A DNA stretch of 64,000 bases from Methanolinea sp. (GTDB lineage: Archaea; Halobacteriota; Methanomicrobia; Methanomicrobiales; Methanospirillaceae): positions 187,107-251,106 of the forward strand of contig JADFDO010000002.1 of the NCBI GenBank assembly GCA_018262855.1, read 5' to 3'. A program made the position numbers and the translations under genes. Below, piece by piece: positions 18,735 through 36,294 of the stretch. How positions within the stretch are numbered: the stretch's first letter is position 1; each line of letters starts with the position of its first letter. The notes below the pieces were generated by a model. That model did no database searches and had not been told where the DNA came from. It was given only the letters and a program-made list of their open reading frames with translations.

Positions 18735-19574
18735 ATGAAATTTTTAAATCTTACTGCTCTCTTAATGGCGGCTGTACTGCTCGCTGCACTCATTGTTGCC
18801 GGTTGTACCACCGGACCATCCCAGCCTGCAGCGACACCGACTCCCACTGCGGTCCAGCAGAAAGAATTGACAGTGTTTGCTGCCGCATCGCTGACTGGCG
18901 TGGTCACTGAAATCGCCCACGACTATGAGCTGCTCCATCCTGGCGTCAAGGTGGTCACCAATTTTGACGGGTCCCAGGCGCTGCGAACGCAGATCGAGCA
19001 GGGAGCATATGCCGATGTGTTTCTTTCCGCGAACACCAAACACATGAATGCACTCCGTGATAAGGGGCTCATGGAGAATGCCTCCATCGGGCTGTTTGTA
19101 AAGAACAAACTCGCAGTCATCACCCCTGCATCCAACCCCGCGAATATTCACACGCTCCAGAATCTCTCCAACCCCGGTGTCCGGCTCGTAATCGGTACGA
19201 AGGACGTCCCTGTCGGAGATTATGCCCGCCAGATCCTCACGAAGATGGCCAATGATACCGCATATGGGCCCTCCTACCAGCAGGCTGTGCTGAAAAACGT
19301 CATCTCGGAAGAGACTACCGTGACTGCCGTGGTTGCAAAAGTCCAGCTCGGTGAAGCTGATGCCGGCATCGTCTACGAATCGGATATCACCCCGGAGAAT
19401 CGTAATAAGTTCATGATCATTGCGATTCCTGACAAGTTCAATGTCATCGCAGAGTACCCGGCCGGAATCGTCAAGGATTCCCGGAATAAAGACGAGGCAT
19501 CCAGGTTCATTGACTACTTGAAGAGCGATCCCGGGAGGGCAACCCTTGTGAAGTTCGGGTTCGCGATGCCGTGA
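18735..19574 (+). CDS. modA: Molybdate ABC transporter substrate-binding protein (lipobox-type signal)
   Basis: LTVFAAASLTGV...VVTNFDGSQALRTQIEQGAYADVFLSAN...GEADAGIVYESD. Signal LLAALIVAGC. Followed by a permease and an ATPase. Confidence 0.85.
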   Translation: MKFLNLTALLMAAVLLAALIVAGCTTGPSQPAATPTPTAVQQKELTVFAAASLTGVVTEIAHDYELLHPGVKVVTNFDGSQALRTQIEQGAYADVFLSANTKHMNALRDKGLMENASIGLFVKNKLAVITPASNPANIHTLQNLSNPGVRLVIGTKDVPVGDYARQILTKMANDTAYGPSYQQAVLKNVISEETTVTAVVAKVQLGEADAGIVYESDITPENRNKFMIIAIPDKFNVIAEYPAGIVKDSRNKDEASRFIDYLKSDPGRATLVKFGFAMP

Positions 19575-20398
19575 ACAAAAAAGACATGAATGCAGGAAAA
19601 AGGAATTTCCTGGAGAGGAAAGGCCTTTTTCTCTACCTTGGAGGAGGGGCACTCTTAACCCTCGTCCTCATTTTCATTGTCACCCCCATCATCAGTCTCT
19701 TCCTTCGTATTACCCCTGAGGAGTTTCTCTCTTCCCTCTCCAGCCCTGTGGTATGGAATGCACTGACACTGAGCCTCATCACCGCGAGTCTTTCGACGCT
19801 TGTTATCATTCTCATCGGAACCCCCGTGGCATGGATCAATGCCCGGCATCGGTATCCCGGCAGGGAGATTGTCGATACCCTGATCGATCTCCCGCTTGTG
19901 CTCCCCCCGACTGTCGCAGGCCTCGCCCTGCTCATGGCATTTGGCAGGATGGGGCTCATCGGTAATTTTTTTTACCAGTTCGGGATCAGTATCGCATTTA
20001 CCACGCTTGCGGTTCTCATCGCCCAGGTGTTCGTATCGCTCCCCTTTTATATCCGGCAGGCCCGTGCCAGTTTCGAGCAGCTTGATACGATGTATGAAAA
20101 TGCGGCTCGCACGCTTGGATCAACTGCGGTGCCTACCTTTGTCACCATCATCCTTCCCCTTGTGAAAACGGGCCTGATTGCGGGAGCAATCATGTCATTT
20201 GCACGGGCTCTTGGAGAATTCGGGGCAACCATCATGTTTGCCGGAAATTTCCAGGGCCGAACACAGACAATGCCCCTTGCGATCTACACCGCGATGCAGG
20301 GTGACCTTATCGCGTCAATCACGCTCTCTGTGATCCTCATCCTGATCTCGTTCATCGTGATTGCACTCGTAAAGCTGAAGCTCAAGGGGGATGCATGA
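19571..20398 (+). CDS. modB: Molybdate ABC transporter permease
   Basis: Polytopic protein with the EAA-type loop (YENAARTLGSTAVPTFVTIILPL...ARALGEFGAT). 4-nt overlaps with both modA and modC. Confidence 0.85.
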   Translation: MNKKDMNAGKRNFLERKGLFLYLGGGALLTLVLIFIVTPIISLFLRITPEEFLSSLSSPVVWNALTLSLITASLSTLVIILIGTPVAWINARHRYPGREIVDTLIDLPLVLPPTVAGLALLMAFGRMGLIGNFFYQFGISIAFTTLAVLIAQVFVSLPFYIRQARASFEQLDTMYENAARTLGSTAVPTFVTIILPLVKTGLIAGAIMSFARALGEFGATIMFAGNFQGRTQTMPLAIYTAMQGDLIASITLSVILILISFIVIALVKLKLKGDA

Positions 20399-28107: not shown

Positions 28108-29640
28108 TCACACGACCCGGACCGCCGCCCCGCTGTTCCGGGCGGACGTAATAAGGGTGGTGCCCCCTCCCGACTCCTCCATGAACTTCCTTGCTGCCTG
28201 CTCGATTCCTGTCATCCCGGTGTCCCCGACCGCGTACACGGTGGGGCCGAACGACGAGAGGCCGGCACCGGCAGCCCCCGATTCCCGGAGCACCTCGAGA
28301 AGATCGGACACCTGCGGAGGCTGGAGACCCAGTTCAACCTTCTTGAACCCCAGCCGCTGGACCGCGTTGATAGACGAGCCGAAGAGATCGAGATCGCGGG
28401 AGGCGATTCCCGGCAGCATCCGCATGAGCACCTCGTGGCAGAGCTCCCGCACCTCATCGAGCGGGACCGGGCAGTGAGCACGGAAGATATCCGTCTCGAT
28501 CTTCCCGCTCGCACCGGCAGGAACTTCCGGGATCGCGAGGAGGATGCGCCAGTCGGAAGGGAAATCATGGCGGGCGATCACGGGCGGGGGGCTGACACCC
28601 TGCGAGGCTCCGGACGGGCGGAAATCTGTCTTCTCTCCTCCCGGACCGAACCGGTGCCCGCCGTCAACGAGGAATCCCCCATACTCGAAGGCGGCCGTCC
28701 CGATCCCCGACGTCCCGCCACGGCCGACGAGCCGGGCGAGTTCCTTTACCGGCAGGGTGCGGCCATGGAGTTCGCTCAGGGCCCGGGCGACGGCGAGACC
28801 GAGCTGCGAGCCGCTCCCGAGCCCTGCATGGGACGGGTACGATTTGCGAACCGTGATCGCCACGCTTCCTCCTGCCCCGAGTTTCTGCAGCACATCCTGC
28901 GCAACGCTACGGATCCGCTCCCGGAGGGCAGGGTCGCCGCCGTTGACCGAGAGGGTGGGGGAGAGCTCGGCCTCCAGCAGGATGCCGGGTTCATCGAGCG
29001 TGATGCCGATTCCGCCGTCGACCCGACCGGAACCTCCATGCATGTCGATCAGGGTCACATGGACCCGCGATGGCGTCCGGACGATGACCCGGCGTGTATC
29101 GAGGAAACGGTTGTAGGGAAACTGCTCCTCAATAAAGATGAGCGGTTTTTCGGCGTGGATGATCCGGTACTGCCGGGAGAGGACGGGCTCATTTCTGCAG
29201 ATCCCAAAGACCCTGCCCATCTCATCGGTAGCAGGCCCAACACGGGCAGAGAGGATCTCCCGCCGGGCTTCGATATGGTGTTGCGAGATGATCCTCCCGA
29301 TGGGGATATCGGCCTTCATGAGGTCATCCTTAAAAGCCGGCGAGAGCCGGTTGATCGGAGTATGAGATATGGCATAGATCAGCACTTCGCCACTCTCTTC
29401 GATTCCTATCTCCACGATCCGGAAGTTGACCAATTCTCCTTCCGCGATATCCAGGGTCTCCGCAGTCTCCCGCTCGGCAGGGATGACCTTCTGGACAAGG
29501 GTCCTGATCACCACGCTCTTCCCGGTGATCGATTCGAGGATCTGGGTGACCGATCCGTCGGTGCCGAGCAGGAATTTCTGGACCGGCGAGATCCTTCCTA
29601 CCTGCACCTCCAGATCCCGGATTGCCTTTGCAATATCCAT
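28108..29640 (-). CDS. Fusion protein: chorismate-lyase-like (DUF98/UbiC fold) N-domain + beta-RFAP-synthase-like GHMP-kinase-fold C-domain
   Basis: N-domain: KFLLGTDGSVTQILESITGKSV...LIYAISHTPINRL...IPIGRII. C-domain: RVHVTLIDMHGGSGRVDGGIGITLDEPG and SHAGLGSGSQLGLAVARAL (GHMP motif II as in RFAP synthases), GAGLSSFGPTVYAV. ATG 29640 is preferred over the listed 29736. Confidence 0.75.
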   Translation of the reverse strand: MDIAKAIRDLEVQVGRISPVQKFLLGTDGSVTQILESITGKSVVIRTLVQKVIPAERETAETLDIAEGELVNFRIVEIGIEESGEVLIYAISHTPINRLSPAFKDDLMKADIPIGRIISQHHIEARREILSARVGPATDEMGRVFGICRNEPVLSRQYRIIHAEKPLIFIEEQFPYNRFLDTRRVIVRTPSRVHVTLIDMHGGSGRVDGGIGITLDEPGILLEAELSPTLSVNGGDPALRERIRSVAQDVLQKLGAGGSVAITVRKSYPSHAGLGSGSQLGLAVARALSELHGRTLPVKELARLVGRGGTSGIGTAAFEYGGFLVDGGHRFGPGGEKTDFRPSGASQGVSPPPVIARHDFPSDWRILLAIPEVPAGASGKIETDIFRAHCPVPLDEVRELCHEVLMRMLPGIASRDLDLFGSSINAVQRLGFKKVELGLQPPQVSDLLEVLRESGAAGAGLSSFGPTVYAVGDTGMTGIEQAARKFMEESGGGTTLITSARNSGAAVRVV

Positions 29641-29835
29641 CAAGACACCCTTCTCGCAGGAATGATATGAATGCTGCGATACGAATGCCGCGAAGAGGAT
29701 TTTCCAGGTCCTGGTTCGGGGGGATACTGGAATCATTTTTTGTGAGATCCCGGATTTTGTGCACCCTTCCCCGGCAGCACAACATATTAAATACGCCGGA
29801 TTATGAACTGTCCATTATCCACAAGGGTGATTCAG

Positions 29836-31689
29836 ATGGTACCAGATCCGCATGAGAAGGACAAGGTGGTCTTTGCAGCCACGATGGCCTCAACCTTTGA
29901 ACCTGATTCGATGACGAACGACAAGATCGAAGCCGCGACCAGGGGACATGGCGCCCTCGTCATCCCGGTCTTTGCGGCTGCCAATTCCATCGCCGAAGAT
30001 CTCTTCTGCCCCATCACGGGCCCGGAGATGAGCCTGATGGGGCGGATGACGGTCATAGACGCGTCCGTCGGAGAACTGCCCCTCGATGTGGTGATCCAGA
30101 AATCGGTGCGGGCTGCGATGAGCGCCGGGGCCGCGCCCGAGAATGCCGCACTCATTGTCGCATCCCTCGCCTATTTCTCGGGGTCCTGTGCACGGTCGGG
30201 TGTCCCGCTCGGTAACAGGAAACTCGGCGCTATTGCCCGGATGCATGCAGGCGCACCCCGGACAAGCGCGATTGCGCTGGTCACCGGCAAGTCCACCCAC
30301 CGGATCCAGTCGTTCCCGGCATACCTTGCGATCTACGAAGCGATCATGGACAAGAAACTCACGAAGGTGGACGGCTCCATGCTCCCCCCGTTCATCTCCG
30401 GCGGGGCAATCTATGGCCACTCTGCGCTTGGCGAGGACTATAACATCCCTGAACTGGCGTACAATGCCGCACATACCGGCACGCTCGCCATGATGAACAG
30501 TATGGCAGGCACAGGGGTCACCCCTCTCGCACTCTGGCCGGCCCTTATCGGCGCAGCGGTCACGATGGAGATTGTGCACCCGGACGCTCTTTTAGGCGAG
30601 GAGTATGGAAAGTTCGGAAGGGTCGATTCATCGTACCTCGCAGGGAAAGGTGCTCGCGACGCTGCGAAGTTGCCGGAGAAGCTTCACATTCGGGGAACCC
30701 ACGAGGAGTACGACACCGCCAAGGTCATCGGCGAGTTCGGGCTTATCCTCAAGGATATCGGCGGCCCTTCGGTGATCGGGTCCATGGCCCTCTCCGAGAT
30801 CTTCGCGGCCTTTGAAGAAGCCCCGATGATCGGGGCGGGCTTCTCGGGAGGCCCGGTCAACCCGCCGCTCGGCCACCTCGAAGGCGACTGCGTTCCGGCA
30901 TTGCGCCTCCTGATGAAGCACCACGGCGACATCTTCGCGGTCGCCGAGGTGATCCGGGACTACAAGATGAACTCCTTCATCGACCCCGAGATGGCCCTCT
31001 GCGGCCTGAACACCATCTCGCGAAAGGCGGAGCAGGTGACACGAGGGAAGATCACGCGGGCCTGCATCCTTGCATCTGAAGGCGTGCGTGACAGGGCCAT
31101 ATATCGCCGGGCCGCCCACACCTACGACATCATCACGGGCGGGAAAACTGTTGCAGACGCGACCCGCACGCTCGATGAGGAACGCAAGAAGTACGTGGAG
31201 CGGCGGGGCTCGGCGGTCCTGTCCGCATTTACCGGAAAGAAGATCGATCTCAAGTTCACTTCGATCAAGCCTCATGGACGGCGCACGGACAAGTTCACGG
31301 AACGCTACTGGGGTTTTGACTCGAACGTCTCCTACGATGTCACGATTGACGGGAAGACGCTTCATGTCGAGAACCTGAGCGGAAAGGAGGTTCCCGACTT
31401 TGCCCTGAAGGGAAAGAACCGCGATAACCCGGACTGGCCGGTCGCACTCTTCTGCGGCGCAGTCCTTACGCAGGAGCTCCAGTACATCGGCCATACCATC
31501 ATCAACATCACGGTCCCTGCTGCAGTCGGGGCGATCCTGGGAATGGATGCAGACAAAGCAGCAGATAAGGCTGAAGACGGGGCATTCCTGACCCGGGCGA
31601 TCCCGGGCGCTGGCGAAAAGGCAAAGGATGTTGCAAAACTCGCACAGCGGGTCTACGCAAAGATCAACGAACCGTTCCCGCCGCAGTAA
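29836..31689 (+). CDS. Conserved-looking soluble protein of unknown function (617 aa), translationally coupled to larC
   Basis: Long ORF with a balanced composition and AGGGTGA RBS 5 nt before ATG 29836 (listed start 29803). TAA 31687-31689 is immediately followed by the larC ATG at 31690. I recognise no catalytic motif. Confidence 0.7.
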   Translation: MVPDPHEKDKVVFAATMASTFEPDSMTNDKIEAATRGHGALVIPVFAAANSIAEDLFCPITGPEMSLMGRMTVIDASVGELPLDVVIQKSVRAAMSAGAAPENAALIVASLAYFSGSCARSGVPLGNRKLGAIARMHAGAPRTSAIALVTGKSTHRIQSFPAYLAIYEAIMDKKLTKVDGSMLPPFISGGAIYGHSALGEDYNIPELAYNAAHTGTLAMMNSMAGTGVTPLALWPALIGAAVTMEIVHPDALLGEEYGKFGRVDSSYLAGKGARDAAKLPEKLHIRGTHEEYDTAKVIGEFGLILKDIGGPSVIGSMALSEIFAAFEEAPMIGAGFSGGPVNPPLGHLEGDCVPALRLLMKHHGDIFAVAEVIRDYKMNSFIDPEMALCGLNTISRKAEQVTRGKITRACILASEGVRDRAIYRRAAHTYDIITGGKTVADATRTLDEERKKYVERRGSAVLSAFTGKKIDLKFTSIKPHGRRTDKFTERYWGFDSNVSYDVTIDGKTLHVENLSGKEVPDFALKGKNRDNPDWPVALFCGAVLTQELQYIGHTIINITVPAAVGAILGMDADKAADKAEDGAFLTRAIPGAGEKAKDVAKLAQRVYAKINEPFPPQ

Positions 31690-32889
31690 ATGAAGGCGCT
31701 CCTCATCGATCCAAGGACCGGGGGTATTGCAGGGGACATGCTCTGTGCGGCTCTCTGCGATCTCACCGGTTCAGTGGAACCCCTTCACACCGTTGCCGAC
31801 GCAATAAAGAGGCTTTCCCGCTGCTCAGCCTTCGAGATCTCGGTTGGACGGACGGGAACACCATGCAGTGCCGCGTACGTCTCGGTGAATGTCGAGGAAG
31901 AGAACGGGCCCGGCACTGATATCGCCCGCGATATGGACGAGGTTCTTACCACCATCGGACTCCCGTCGCCCGCGGCGGTCATGGCACGTGTGATCCTTGA
32001 CGATCTCCTCTCGGTCAAGGCCAGGTTTCACCCCGAGATCGCACCGGGCCAGACCTTCGCGTCGGTCGATACGATCTTCGATATCCTCGGTCCCCTTGCG
32101 CTCCTTGAGGATGCCGGCCTCTCCGGGTGCCCCGTCTATACCACCCCGCCCGCACTCGGCGGGGGAGTGATCCATACGCCCGGTGGCGAGGTCGGTGGGC
32201 CCGCCCCGGCATCCCTTGAGATCTGCGCTCGCCACCGGATGCCGGTCTCCGAGAGCCCTCTCTTACGAGAACTGACGACCCCGACCGGTGCGGCCCTGCT
32301 CGCGAACCTCGCCCGCGTGGTGACATTGTTCCCTGCCATGACTCCGCTCCGGACAGGGTATGGTGCGGGTTCGAAGGATCGAGGATCCGAGACGAGCATT
32401 CTCCGGGTTGTCGAGGGGGAGATTGATGACCTGACCGAAGAGCGGATCGTGATCCTCGAGACAAACCTCGACGACGTGGACGGTGAGACGATCGGGTTTA
32501 CCAGGGAGAGACTCTTTGCGGCCGGGGCGGTGGATGTTTTCGTCACGCCAGCGTCAGGGAAGAAGAACCGACCTGTCCAGGTACTCTCCGTGATTACCTC
32601 GCGAGAGGACTATCTCCCGCTTGTCAAACTCCTGATGGACGAGACCGGGACGCTTGGCGTCCGGATACGGGAGGAGCCCCGCCTGGTCGCCGACAGGGTA
32701 AAAGAACAGATCAGCGTCATGGTCAAGAATCAGCCGTTTACAGTGCGCATCAAAATATCCAGGGTGGGCGGAAAGGTCATTGCGGTCAAACCCGAGTACG
32801 AGGACTTGAAACAGATTGCGCTGGCCCTGGGAATTCCCTTGCGGTATGTCACACGGGAAGTGTACCGGCAGCTGCCGTTCAATCCCTGA
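31690..32889 (+). CDS. larC: LarC-family nickel insertion protein (DUF111)
   Basis: MKALLIDPRTGGIAGDMLCAALCDL N-terminus, ETNLDD, DETGTLGVRI. 399 aa, typical of the LarC/DUF111 family. Confidence 0.85.
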   Translation: MKALLIDPRTGGIAGDMLCAALCDLTGSVEPLHTVADAIKRLSRCSAFEISVGRTGTPCSAAYVSVNVEEENGPGTDIARDMDEVLTTIGLPSPAAVMARVILDDLLSVKARFHPEIAPGQTFASVDTIFDILGPLALLEDAGLSGCPVYTTPPALGGGVIHTPGGEVGGPAPASLEICARHRMPVSESPLLRELTTPTGAALLANLARVVTLFPAMTPLRTGYGAGSKDRGSETSILRVVEGEIDDLTEERIVILETNLDDVDGETIGFTRERLFAAGAVDVFVTPASGKKNRPVQVLSVITSREDYLPLVKLLMDETGTLGVRIREEPRLVADRVKEQISVMVKNQPFTVRIKISRVGGKVIAVKPEYEDLKQIALALGIPLRYVTREVYRQLPFNP

Positions 32890-33435: not shown

Positions 33436-35973
33436 TCAACCTCTCCTTCTGCCCATTCCAAATGTAAAGCACAGGCAAAGTCCTCCAATGAGAGTGACCA
33501 GTGAAAGACCTGTCTGTGTGGTGGGAATGGTGGTTGGCATGGTTGTCGGCTGGCTTGTCGGAGTGCTGGTGACCGTGGGTGTTGCAGTTGGGGTGGGTGT
33601 CGGGGTCACAAGGTTGAACGAGGTGGTGGCGGTCGCACCGGAGACGGTTACGCCGCTGACCCTGACAGTATAGGTATCCGGTACCAACGAGGCAGTATCA
33701 AAAGTGAACGACCAGGTATTCATATCCCCGGGGCCGTCCTGTACGATGATCGTTCCTGCGGCACCGGAGAACTCACTGCTCACGACCTTGGGGGTAGGTC
33801 CGAATGACTGTGAGGTGACCTCCACGAGCAGCCTGTTGCCAGGGGCAAGGTTAGTGGTGCCGGAGAGCGTGATCTTGTCGCCGAGAGTTGGGTTCACCAG
33901 GGGAGCGATGGTGATCTGGGGATTGACCAGCAGGAATGTCGTGGTCGTGTAGGTATCATCGATGAACGGGCTATCAAGGGCGTCGATGAGGGCATTCGCT
34001 GCCTGGGCGCTCATGAGAGACCCCGCTCCAGACATCCTGAAAATAGGGCTTCCCGTAACCGGGTACGTCGACAACACCACCTGGCGGGCGGGATCCGGGT
34101 AAATATCAAGCGTATTGGTATAGCCCGGGTGCTGTACAACCACATAGTACTGCCCACTGGAGAGTGCAGAGGTCTGCCCTTCACTCAATTCATACGAGAA
34201 TGAACCGTCCGCACTGATCGCCTGGGTGGTATAGAGGACCCGGTTGATCCCGAAGATCCAGACTGCCACTCCGGGAGAGGGATTTCCTGTCGCGGTGCCC
34301 CGGATCTCTAGCTTGTCACCCCGTGCAATGGTGGCCTCGCGGATGCCTGCGGTCACAAATGGCCGGGAAAACGAGATGGAGACGGTCGAGTACCGGCGAT
34401 CCCGCAGGTCGGATCGTGAACTCGGGCCCGAGACAACGTACACCGTATAGGACCCGGCATCGACGCCCAGGTTCCCGGTGAACCACCGGTATTCCCAGGT
34501 ATTGTCGGGATCGACCGGAACTGAGGTGAACGTCTCCGGCCGCCCTGTAATCACCGAAGTCCTGGGACTGGAGAGGCTGCCCCCCGAAGAGGGCAGGTTG
34601 GGCCCTGTCATAAAGAGGTAGACGGTATCAGACTCCGTATTGGTCCCTGACAGGGTGACCTGTTCGCCAAGGTAATAGGATCGTGACGGTCCAGAGGAGA
34701 GGCTTATGGTCCCGCGGACCACGTCAACGGTGACCTCCGAGGAGGTCAGCATCCCTGCAGAGGTCCGTTCGACCCGGAAGGTATAACTGCGGGAATCCGT
34801 TGCTGACGAGGTCTGCCATTGCACCGTCCTCGTGCCGGATCCCGGGAGGGTGACCTGGGCATAGTACCGGGTGCCGTTTGCAGGGGTGTTGGGCACATCA
34901 TCCCGGATGGTCATTCCCTGCCTCGTTGAGACGGGATGCGACCCGATGGAAAACGGTCCTCCCTCCGGGTCCATCCGGACACCCTCCTGGTTCGGGGTGA
35001 TCATAGGCGGCTGGCTCCCCTGGTCCCCGGCCATGCTCCCGGTATTCCTGACCCACAGATAATATTCTGCTCCCGGGACACCGTTGATGGTAACAGAGAA
35101 CGGGTTCCCCCTCACCACATCGGCGACATTCGATGCAATGGCAACCCGGTCGGATGCAATCCTCACCTGGACTGGCATGGGGCGGCCGGTACCAGGGACC
35201 CCCTGGAGGTTGTCCTGGAGCCGGTTGACATTATAGTCAAGGGATGCGGTATAGGTCCCGGCCTGGTAGAGGCGTGTGCCTGCCGGGCCGGTCGCTCCCG
35301 TATCCCAGCCGGTCCCGGTCCCCGGGGATGCCCAGTACCATGGCAGGGTGTTGACGTTGAGGTTCCTGATCGGGATGGAGGTACTATTGGGGCCGGCGAC
35401 CGCGGAAAGGGTAGCACCTCCGGGTGAGGTGAGCATGATCGAGAGATATCCGTCCGATGCGGGATCATACCCTGCCCTTCGCGTGATCGAGTACATATTG
35501 GTCTCGATGCGGAAATTCAGGAGAGTCCCCGGGGGTACACCCGTTCCTGAGACATCCTGGTTGGTATCCTGGTTCCAGACCCGCAGGTTCAGGGACGGGT
35601 AGAGTACTTCGAATGCAGGTGCACCCGCGGTCTGGTTCCATACATACCAGGTTCCCGTCGCATGTCCGAACTGGCTGGGGGACACGTAAAAATTCTGCTT
35701 GCTGCCGATGGTGAGGATCAGTGCCGGAACATCGACATTGATATTCGATCCGGGGGCAAACCACGCGATCTGGCTTGCATTTCCCGGGACGGCAGCGGAA
35801 ATGTCCAGCCCTTCCTCGCCAAGAAAGACCTGGTCTCCCGGACTGATGATATTCGCGGATCCGTACGCTGGAAACAGGATAAGCCCTGATGCAGTGATGA
35901 GAATCATGGCCCATAGCGTTCCCGAAACCAGGCGATGCAGGTCATCATCCGCTCCCATGTGATGTGGATTCAT
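33436..35973 (-). CDS. Large secreted cell-surface (S-layer-like) glycoprotein with Thr/Pro linker, C-terminal TM helix and basic tail
   Basis: Start ATG 35973 (GGAGAG upstream). Signal-anchor LWAMILITASGLILFPAYGSA. Many N-x-S/T sequons. C-terminus PTPTPTATPTVTSTPTSQPTTMPTTIPTTQTG-LSLVTLIGGLCLCFTFGMG-RRRG. Confidence 0.8.
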   Translation of the reverse strand: MNPHHMGADDDLHRLVSGTLWAMILITASGLILFPAYGSANIISPGDQVFLGEEGLDISAAVPGNASQIAWFAPGSNINVDVPALILTIGSKQNFYVSPSQFGHATGTWYVWNQTAGAPAFEVLYPSLNLRVWNQDTNQDVSGTGVPPGTLLNFRIETNMYSITRRAGYDPASDGYLSIMLTSPGGATLSAVAGPNSTSIPIRNLNVNTLPWYWASPGTGTGWDTGATGPAGTRLYQAGTYTASLDYNVNRLQDNLQGVPGTGRPMPVQVRIASDRVAIASNVADVVRGNPFSVTINGVPGAEYYLWVRNTGSMAGDQGSQPPMITPNQEGVRMDPEGGPFSIGSHPVSTRQGMTIRDDVPNTPANGTRYYAQVTLPGSGTRTVQWQTSSATDSRSYTFRVERTSAGMLTSSEVTVDVVRGTISLSSGPSRSYYLGEQVTLSGTNTESDTVYLFMTGPNLPSSGGSLSSPRTSVITGRPETFTSVPVDPDNTWEYRWFTGNLGVDAGSYTVYVVSGPSSRSDLRDRRYSTVSISFSRPFVTAGIREATIARGDKLEIRGTATGNPSPGVAVWIFGINRVLYTTQAISADGSFSYELSEGQTSALSSGQYYVVVQHPGYTNTLDIYPDPARQVVLSTYPVTGSPIFRMSGAGSLMSAQAANALIDALDSPFIDDTYTTTTFLLVNPQITIAPLVNPTLGDKITLSGTTNLAPGNRLLVEVTSQSFGPTPKVVSSEFSGAAGTIIVQDGPGDMNTWSFTFDTASLVPDTYTVRVSGVTVSGATATTSFNLVTPTPTPTATPTVTSTPTSQPTTMPTTIPTTQTGLSLVTLIGGLCLCFTFGMGRRRG

Positions 35974-36294
35974 GGTTCTCTTCTCTCCTGTTTGATACAG
36001 CGGTATCCCAGTGTTGGTATACCGAGGTCTAAGAAGTAAGTGAATAGGGTGAAGAGTATATAAGATCATTGACCCTGCCGGATACCGGTGGCAGGAATGC
36101 CCTGCAACGAAAGGTAAGAGATGCATCAACTTTCATATTCCCCTCCGTGATGGCTCTGATGCGAGAATCGCGGATATTCAGGGCATGGCGATCATTATTT
36201 AAGACTATATCCGAAAATTTGTCCGTTTATGATTCCCCTGCGGTTGAAGGGACGTAGTGCAGAATGAGAGAATGAAGGACCACGAGGAACACAG

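Follow-up and report, generated by a model that had tools for sequence, protein, structure and literature searches.

An isolated, highly conserved archaeal protein family encoded beside LarC: a candidate user of the nickel-pincer cofactor

The window analysed here is a 64,000-nt stretch of contig JADFDO010000002.1 from Methanolinea sp., and our subject is the 617-amino-acid (aa) product of one of its open reading frames (ORFs), at 29836-31689 on the forward strand, which we label X617. The X617 gene is followed directly by larC, and the family to which the protein belongs is uncharacterised, isolated, highly conserved and structurally unprecedented in the libraries searched. From its sequence and gene linkage we propose that X617 is the apoprotein of a new-fold enzyme that uses the nickel-pincer cofactor, or a close variant of it, and that is loaded through a LarC2 partner; we give this proposal an even chance.

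The X617 gene and its family

The longest reading frame extends from 29803 to 31689 (628 aa), and the ATG at 29836, which yields 617 aa, is preceded by a Shine-Dalgarno-like site and backed by the N-termini of aligned homologues. An earlier reading made from the letters alone (the sequence-only reading) had given the same coordinates, length and ribosome-binding site, and had placed the gene across a 195-nt divergent spacer from a fusion gene, which holds if the fusion gene starts at its Met33 (29640). Within this spacer lies a TATA-like box that is the putative archaeal promoter of the X617-larC operon. The TAA of X617 (31687-31689) directly abuts the ATG of larC (31690), as had also been noted, and the downstream ORF is indeed a full-length PF01969 protein; the arrangement would favour stoichiometric production of X617 and LarC. 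The features to which the argument refers are:

29784..29793, + strand: TATA-like box ATATTAAATA, read by eye in the 195-nt divergent spacer, 43 nt 5' of the ATG
29823..29831, + strand: Shine-Dalgarno-like site AAGGGTGAT, 4 nt before the ATG at 29836
29836..31689, + strand: X617, candidate nickel-pincer-cofactor enzyme, from the ORF, its homologues and the LarC/LarC2 linkage
30832..30876, + strand: Gly-rich loop GAGFSGGPVNPPLGH, residues 333-347, invariant in an alignment with 20 homologues and overlapping the low-confidence AlphaFold2 segment 338-346
31690..32412, + strand: LarC1-like half of LarC, from alignment to M. thermoacetica LarC (PDB 12bi); TIGR00299 score 94.2 against a cut-off of 90
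32446..32889, + strand: LarC2 half of LarC, binding cytidine triphosphate (CTP); NF052512 120.6 bits against a cut-off of 50

The ORF is real, since a word-indexed search recovers 687 full-length homologues of approximately 610-617 aa with 53-91% identity to X617. When 1.84 billion cluster representatives were searched exhaustively with a profile, 204 matched (14 of them full-length, the rest fragments) and no more distant related family came up. The closest relative in species-representative genomes, at 95% identity, is from a Methanolinea metagenome-assembled genome (MAG), which would make a member of the Methanoregulaceae the probable source of the window. Among the Methanomicrobiales the hosts are Methanoregula, Methanolinea, Methanofollis, Methanoculleus, Methanocorpusculum, Methanolacinia and Methanomicrobium; other archaeal hosts are Methanothrix, Archaeoglobi, Thermoproteota (Thermofilaceae, Desulfurococcales and others), Thor-, Odin- and Promethearchaeota and an Aenigmatarchaeota MAG, and there is one Synergistota MAG. 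Divergent members (35-46% identity) stand on contigs whose genes otherwise look bacterial. A metagenome scan returned mostly close relatives, and so more counts and not more diversity. Two assignments deserve a comment: the homologue from a Desulfuromonadaceae MAG (L036, 69% identical to that of the window) may be a binning contaminant because its surroundings look like a Methanothrix-type locus, and the one from the Synergistota MAG (L080, 48% identical), whose neighbours include PucR-type regulator, ZnuA-like and FwdB-like genes, may represent a real transfer. A literature search by accession, description and topic found no paper on the family.

The statement that X617 belongs to no recognisable family stood up to every search made. 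Profile searches of Pfam-A and NCBIfam gave no match at E ≤ 0.01, and no Pfam domain of unknown function in the 2025 library corresponds to it, contrary to the suggestion that it might be such an archaeal domain. Single-sequence and profile searches of the PDB sequences returned only a designed helical repeat, rejected as a compositional match, and a marginal match to 4H7L. The latter, an uncharacterised protein of 157 aa, aligns with a small beta-sheet subdomain at residues ~455-520 (window ~31198-31395; E 8e-4, 21 bits), and this match was not recovered by Foldseek. The AlphaFold2 model built with 20 homologues (mean predicted local distance difference test, pLDDT, of 82; predicted TM-score, pTM, of 0.85) is largely helical with a single small sheet at residues 470-511. 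Foldseek comparison of the model with the PDB gave a best E of 0.19 with TM ≤ 0.13, and comparison with BFVD gave no match at E < 0.1; the model is thus unlike LarA, the aldo-keto reductases and methylthioribose-1-phosphate isomerase (MtnA). The top Foldseek entries are helical membrane proteins, but a membrane protein or transporter is ruled out by the hydropathy of X617 and by the meaningless TM-scores. No internal duplication was found when four segments of the protein were compared with each other by hhalign. Nor did the family, PDB and fold searches bring up homology to a well-known unrelated enzyme, the finding that the sequence-only reading had named as fatal to its proposal.

A Kyte-Doolittle scan finds no 19-residue window reaching 1.6, so the description of X617 as soluble is reasonable; it has six Cys (1.0%), none of them conserved, and contains neither a Walker A motif nor CxxC, in line with the few Cys and missing P-loop reported before. 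The Gly-rich segment that had been pointed out is GAGFSGGPVNPPLGH, which is unchanged in 20 homologues and is a candidate cofactor- or phosphate-binding loop. Mean column identity in the first alignment is 65%, with long invariant motifs. The conserved residues include His38/195/248/284/347 and Lys129/152/306/397, of which H195, H248, H284, K129, K152 and K306 reach at least 95% conservation; with divergent members included, conservation is still at least 90% for His195/248/284, for Lys129/152/306 and for several residues of Arg, Asp and Glu. Of the four segments that are modelled with low confidence, three (118-124, 338-346 and 487-493) fall on invariant motifs, which suggests that these loops may be ligand-dependent elements that become ordered only when the ligand is present.

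Linkage to LarC, LarC2 and the lar operons

The sequence-only reading had proposed X617 as a candidate partner or client of LarC on the strength of a single stop-start junction, and the linkage proves to extend far beyond this genome. We scanned 173 loci, i.e., 172 fetched loci and the window, with LarC1 and LarC2 profiles built in this analysis, and 157 of them have a LarC or LarC2-only gene within 3 kb of X617, which is the opposite of the lack of conserved linkage that had been said to speak against a partnership. The loci divide as follows:

142 of 173 loci: full LarC within 3 kb of X617
9 of 173 loci: LarC2-only gene (~160-195 aa) within 3 kb of X617
6 of 173 loci: LarC within 3 kb of X617, running off the contig
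16 of 173 loci: no LarC or LarC2 within 3 kb of X617

In none of the 16 LarC-free loci does the flank reach 2.5 kb both upstream and downstream of X617. Three of them (L011, L136 and L137) have at least 2 kb downstream of X617 without LarC, and a few true exceptions to the linkage may therefore exist. Euryarchaeota have larC after X617 on the same strand, with a gap of -4 to +18 nt, and Thermoproteota have it upstream. When all neighbouring ORFs were clustered de novo, LarC was the sole neighbour common across lineages, and the linkage to LarC or LarC2 is kept even by members with 35-46% identity on the bacterial-looking contigs (L088, L090 and L091). LarC is a neighbour of X617 and not a homologue: X617 compared by hhalign with the LarC1 and LarC2 profiles gave probabilities of 0.2% and 0.4% respectively. 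Taken together, LarC is the probable interaction partner of X617.

Which part of LarC is the partner depends on the state of its two halves. The window larC (31690-32889, +; 399 aa) encodes a member of the PF01969 'nickel insertion' family (E 2.8e-83), and by domain content it is a canonical LarC, with PF01969 over its full length and LarC2 above the NCBIfam cut-off. Its LarC1 half retains D15, H108, D124, D128 and E187 (M. thermoacetica numbering) and carries the changes R71P, E104K, H116P, H118Q, E119T and H160G, so that five residues of the M. thermoacetica activity set (R71, E104, H118, E119 and H160) are lost. M. thermoacetica LarC is left almost inactive by H118A or H160A, and its activity is lowered markedly by E104A, R71A or E119A (PMC13510736). 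Because substitutions at these five positions cripple that enzyme, it is uncertain that the window LarC works as a nickel-insertion enzyme: the earlier assignment of the neighbour holds for its family and its intact LarC2 half, and is in doubt for the activity of LarC1.

The same pattern emerges from 58 X617-linked LarC proteins. LarC1 is fully canonical in Thermoproteota, Archaeoglobi and some Methanomicrobiales, altered as in the window in Methanoregulaceae, and in Methanocorpusculum and several Methanoculleus it has lost D15 (D15A) together with the whole His region. The LarC2 motifs DDxxGE, KKxRP and ExGxxGxR are intact in 151 sequences, LarC2-only proteins included. Since LarC1 decays while the LarC2 motifs are kept, the invariant partner of X617 is the LarC2-type CTP-binding module and not the nickel-insertion half, and the proposed partnership with LarC stands for this domain, not for the whole protein.

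The LarC2-only proteins (~155-195 aa) are a subfamily of their own, sharing 25% identity with the C2 part of full-length LarC and 34.5% among themselves, and three clusters (L040, L082 and L086) contain a full LarC and an extra LarC2-only gene together. The LarC2-only genes are:

L069: 7818-8378
L070: 2082-2657
L071: 7865-8383
L080: 7835-8320
L084: 10151-10651
L086: 11865-12365
L040: 7828-8316, - strand
L082: 18052-18516, - strand
L090: 9495-10004
L091: 3719-4309

Outside the class II methanogens, X617 is found in operons with further genes of the cofactor pathway. The order larB-larC-larE-X617 is present in L044, L048, L066, L082/L083, L086, L087, L162, L167, L168 and L172, whose carriers are Thermoproteota and several uncultured archaeal lineages; in L081 the order is larE-X617-larB-larC. 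In Asgard, Synergistota and related loci X617 is followed by a LarC2-only gene, and larB comes directly after this pair or within ~2 kb (L069, L070, L080 and L084) or lies divergently upstream of it (L071). The bacterial-type contig L091 has X617, a ferredoxin gene, a LarC2-only gene, a sensor kinase and regulator, LarB, and a separate LarC1. Overall LarB adjoins X617 in 21 loci and LarE in 14, all of them outside the class II methanogens, which adds to the LarC/LarC2 linkage a genomic association with the biosynthesis genes of the cofactor. A 'LarB' in L110 was discarded as a weak PurE-like match.

LarA (PF09861) is absent from the families listed for 69 representatives of neighbouring proteins with a LarA-like size (330-520 aa), and the loci annotated with Pfam (L081-L087 and L090-L092) show none either; X617 is the sole recurrent non-biosynthetic gene of the larBCE-X operons. 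The end of an operon beside larB, larC and larE is the usual place of the cofactor user, and in these operons without a nearby LarA it is X617 that occupies this place. The rates of divergence point in the same direction. Mean pairwise identity is 70% for X617, 54% for LarC2 and 43% for LarC1, and an enzyme that is more conserved than its maturation factors is the usual pattern, so that the much stronger conservation of X617 argues for a cofactor user.

Wider gene neighbourhood

Several unrelated lineages have genes of methanofuran- and methanopterin-dependent one-carbon (C1) metabolism in the neighbourhood of X617: FwdA, FwdB/D, FwdC and Ftr in L061, L065, L071, L081 and L082, Mch in L040 and L081, and an Mtd-like gene in L059 and L071. 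L081 (1-20551) is a compact C1 island with X617 and its lar genes in the middle; it contains a DUF1464 gene, the C1 genes Mch, FwdC, Ftr and FwdA and the methanopterin and methanofuran biosynthesis-like genes RFAP-synthase-like, MptH-like, DUF447, HisA/F-like, hydantoinase-like, ATP-grasp and MfnB. MptA (GTP cyclohydrolase, folE2 type) is directly upstream of X617 in all Methanocorpusculum loci.

The window itself has a gene for methanopterin biosynthesis on the other side of the divergent spacer, in which a chorismate-pyruvate-lyase-like domain is N-terminal to beta-RFAP synthase:

28108..29736, - strand: fusion of a chorismate-lyase-like domain and beta-RFAP synthase, methanopterin biosynthesis; NF040726 393.9 bits against a cut-off of 328

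From its domains the fusion would fit a route from chorismate through 4-hydroxybenzoate to methanopterin. As a conserved link to X617, the adjacency of RFAP synthase was rejected: it is missing even in the 95%-identical locus L001 and is weak context. RFAP-synthase-like genes are near X617 in L080 and L081, and the GHMP kinase of L082, tried as an RFAP synthase, is instead pantoate-kinase-like.

A second group of neighbours concerns ribose phosphates and nucleosides. Uridine phosphorylase and a ribose-1-phosphate-kinase-like PfkB are near X617 in L082 and L087, a nucleoside 2-deoxyribosyltransferase-like gene is upstream in Methanoculleus loci, and a 475-aa ribokinase-like protein is encoded directly downstream of X617 in larB-larC-larE-X617 clusters (L066, L082/L083 and L087). 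The latter has an N-terminal extension of ~170 aa without a family match. A further family of 340-365 aa, with a weak NTP_transf_2 match and no NCBIfam model, recurs, in some cases as tandem copies, in lar/X617/Fwd clusters of uncultured archaea. The genes of these two families are:

L066: 7971-9398, 475-aa ribokinase family
L082: 11988-13421, 475-aa ribokinase family
L083: 8024-9457, 475-aa ribokinase family
L087: 11953-13377, 475-aa ribokinase family
L061: 8853-10973, NTP_transf_2-like family of 340-365 aa, two copies
L071: 1947-5050, NTP_transf_2-like family, three copies
L081: 4248-5345, NTP_transf_2-like family
L082: 16945-17964, NTP_transf_2-like family
L083: 12981-14000, NTP_transf_2-like family

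The C1 and ribose-phosphate neighbours may mark the substrate of X617, or may equally serve the supply of nicotinate nucleotide for the cofactor. Nickel ABC transporters (Nik/Opp ATPases) were considered among the neighbours and dismissed as generic ABC similarity; the window's own transporter (18735-21135) has a ModA/WtpA-type binding protein.

The remaining features of the window touch the argument less directly. Convergent with larC, positions 33436-36129 (-) encode an 897-aa protein with a DUF3821 domain, a Thr/Pro-rich C-terminal stretch and then a hydrophobic tail, which is probably a surface protein. A 366-aa ORF at 23573-24673 (-) matches the profile of CdhD (CODH/ACS delta subunit) over only ~90 residues (E 1.7e-11). 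Long antisense ORFs of 288-525 aa at 28093-29670 (+), 30628-31494 (-) and 25804-27120 (-) oppose the RFAP synthase, X617 and histidine kinase genes, and are taken to be by-products of high G+C content and not genes.

Readings of X617 and their meaning

If X617 is a user of the pincer cofactor, a simple scheme connects the observations. LarB, LarE and LarC make the nickel-pincer nucleotide cofactor, which would then be handed to X617 by direct interplay with the adjoining CTP-binding LarC2 domain; the translational coupling of X617 and larC in the window would exist because of this handover. X617 would bind the cofactor with one of its invariant His residues as a nickel ligand, while invariant Lys and Arg residues and Gly-rich loops may hold the nucleotide. 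By analogy with LarA and NphT, the nickel-dependent catalysis would be hydride shuttling via the pyridinium C4/Ni centre. The substrate could belong to the methanopterin/methanofuran C1 system or be a ribose-phosphate compound, judging from the gene context.

Several observations weigh against this scheme. The LarC1 half adjoining X617 is often catalytically degenerate, and in nine loci LarC2 stands alone beside X617, which also fits a biosynthetic role. Neither larB nor larE is present in the X617 flanks of Methanomicrobiales and Methanothrix, the window included. Conserved His and Lys residues are, moreover, non-specific evidence.

The first two of these points lead to the main alternative, that X617 is a component of the biosynthesis or modification of the cofactor, with LarC2, that would replace the LarC1 half or make a variant such as a dinucleotide. 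This would account for LarC2 being the constant partner and for LarC1 being absent beside X617 in nine loci, devoid of the R71, E104, H118, E119 and H160 equivalents in Methanoregulaceae and for the most part deleted in Methanocorpusculum and in several Methanoculleus. His, Asp and Glu are among the invariant residues of X617, and a dinucleotide variant of the cofactor, NPAD, is known. However, LarC1 is fully canonical beside X617 in Thermoproteota and Archaeoglobi, and the separate LarC1 in the L091 cluster shows that adjacency to a LarC2-only gene does not mean that LarC1 is missing. The hhalign comparison finds no homology between X617 and LarC1, and a protein of 617 aa whose mean identity is 70% changes much more slowly than LarB, LarC or LarE, unlike a typical accessory factor. 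On this reading, moreover, no gene of the larBCE-X operons would be left as the user. We regard a biosynthetic role as somewhat unlikely.

The distinctness of the LarC2-only proteins and their presence next to a full LarC in the same cluster could instead suggest that X617 and a LarC2-type protein are a separate two-component system, sometimes beside lar, with a non-pincer chemistry such as the transfer of cytidine monophosphate to another metabolite. The recurrent FwdA/B/C, Ftr, Mch and Mtd-like genes, MptA in Methanocorpusculum and the MptH-like, DUF447 and MfnB genes of L081 would then place it in methanopterin or methanofuran biosynthesis, and the uridine phosphorylase and ribokinase-like kinases in ribose-phosphate metabolism. 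Against this stands the adjacency of LarB and LarE, always outside class II methanogens, since LarB has no known role besides the synthesis of the pincer cofactor; the LarC2 motifs, too, agree with those of LarC from L. plantarum and M. thermoacetica. Such a separate system appears unlikely.

Finally, database names offer a reading of their own. The homologues are all named 'hypothetical' except for the JGI/IMG-derived name 'methylthioribose-1-phosphate isomerase', which is carried by P0011, P0016, P0035, P0036, P0053 and others and has spread to at least one NCBI record. The nucleoside phosphorylase and ribose-1-phosphate-kinase-like genes near X617 in L082, L087 and L090 would suit such an activity. 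However, no IF-2B/MtnA (PF01008) match was found in Pfam or NCBIfam, searches of the PDB by sequence and by structure matched neither MtnA nor ribose-1,5-bisphosphate isomerases, most sources say 'hypothetical', and the X617 model is largely alpha-helical whereas the MtnA fold is Rossmann-like alpha/beta. Homology to MtnA was thus rejected, with support from neither sequence nor structure, and we consider it extremely improbable that X617 is this isomerase.

The proposal of a pincer-cofactor enzyme can also be compared with the users already described. Like LarA, X617 is encoded with larB, larC and larE, in the operon position of larA, and would depend on the same pathway for its cofactor. Its conserved His and Lys residues could provide a nickel ligand and a cofactor tether; in both LarA and NphT a His is the nickel ligand and a Lys the tether (PMC13524815). 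Unlike LarA, which has ~420 aa and an alpha/beta fold, X617 has 617 aa, is largely helical, and is linked most tightly to LarC2 and not to the whole pathway; the profile search for LarA_N/DUF2088 (PF09861) found no match in X617 at E ≤ 0.01, and no LarA entry (e.g., PDB 5HUQ) is among its Foldseek matches.

NphT, an NPMN-dependent hydride transferase with an aldo-keto-reductase fold (PMC13524815, Nat Chem 2026), is a precedent for unrelated folds using the pincer cofactor. X617 resembles it as a candidate non-LarA scaffold that adjoins lar genes in clusters without larA. It differs in that NphT, a TIM barrel of 32.6 kDa, belongs to PF00248 and has relatives that depend on NAD(P)H, whereas X617 has no Pfam domain, outside relatives or fold match; specifically, neither a Pfam match to PF00248 nor an aldo-keto reductase among the Foldseek matches was found for the mostly helical model. 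The pipeline that led to NphT used LarC as its anchor, demanded that LarB and LarE lie no more than 20 ORFs away and profiled the co-occurrence of Pfam families (PMC13524815). It presumably misses X617 because the family has no Pfam model and larB and larE are often elsewhere. The NPAD-dependent ornithine cyclodeaminase (Desguin 2025, cited in PMC13524815) is a non-LarA user that also occurs in methanogens, with a cofactor that is the dinucleotide variant. X617 would likewise be a non-LarA pincer user in methanogens, and this case shows that the cofactor can vary at its nucleotide end; X617 is set apart by having no match to described families.

Few kinds of nickel enzyme are known, and which proteins use the pincer cofactor where larB, larC and larE occur without larA has been a question of the field for a decade (PMC11796402). 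This concerns ~15% of genomes, for which a 'yet-to-be-identified protein' of a different fold was expected (PMC11796402). Two answers came in 2025-2026, both on known folds, and X617, if our proposal is true, would be the third, making its family a candidate further scaffold of the known pincer-cofactor system. It would differ from the other two in having a fold without a PDB counterpart, in a degree of conservation like that of core metabolic enzymes, and in belonging mainly to anaerobic archaea, including the abundant and environmentally important methanogens Methanothrix, Methanoregula, Methanoculleus and Methanocorpusculum. A stronger form of the proposal is a long shot: X617 would be a structurally unprecedented nickel-pincer class that is supplied with its cofactor directly by a LarC2 protein of its own, perhaps in a cytidine-dinucleotide form that at no point becomes free mononucleotide, for hydride transfer in methanopterin/methanofuran-linked C1 or ribose-phosphate chemistry common to methanogens, Archaeoglobi, Thermoproteota and Asgard archaea. 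That LarC2 is the universal partner while LarC1 decays or is absent bears, in addition, on how LarC passes on its intermediate and product.

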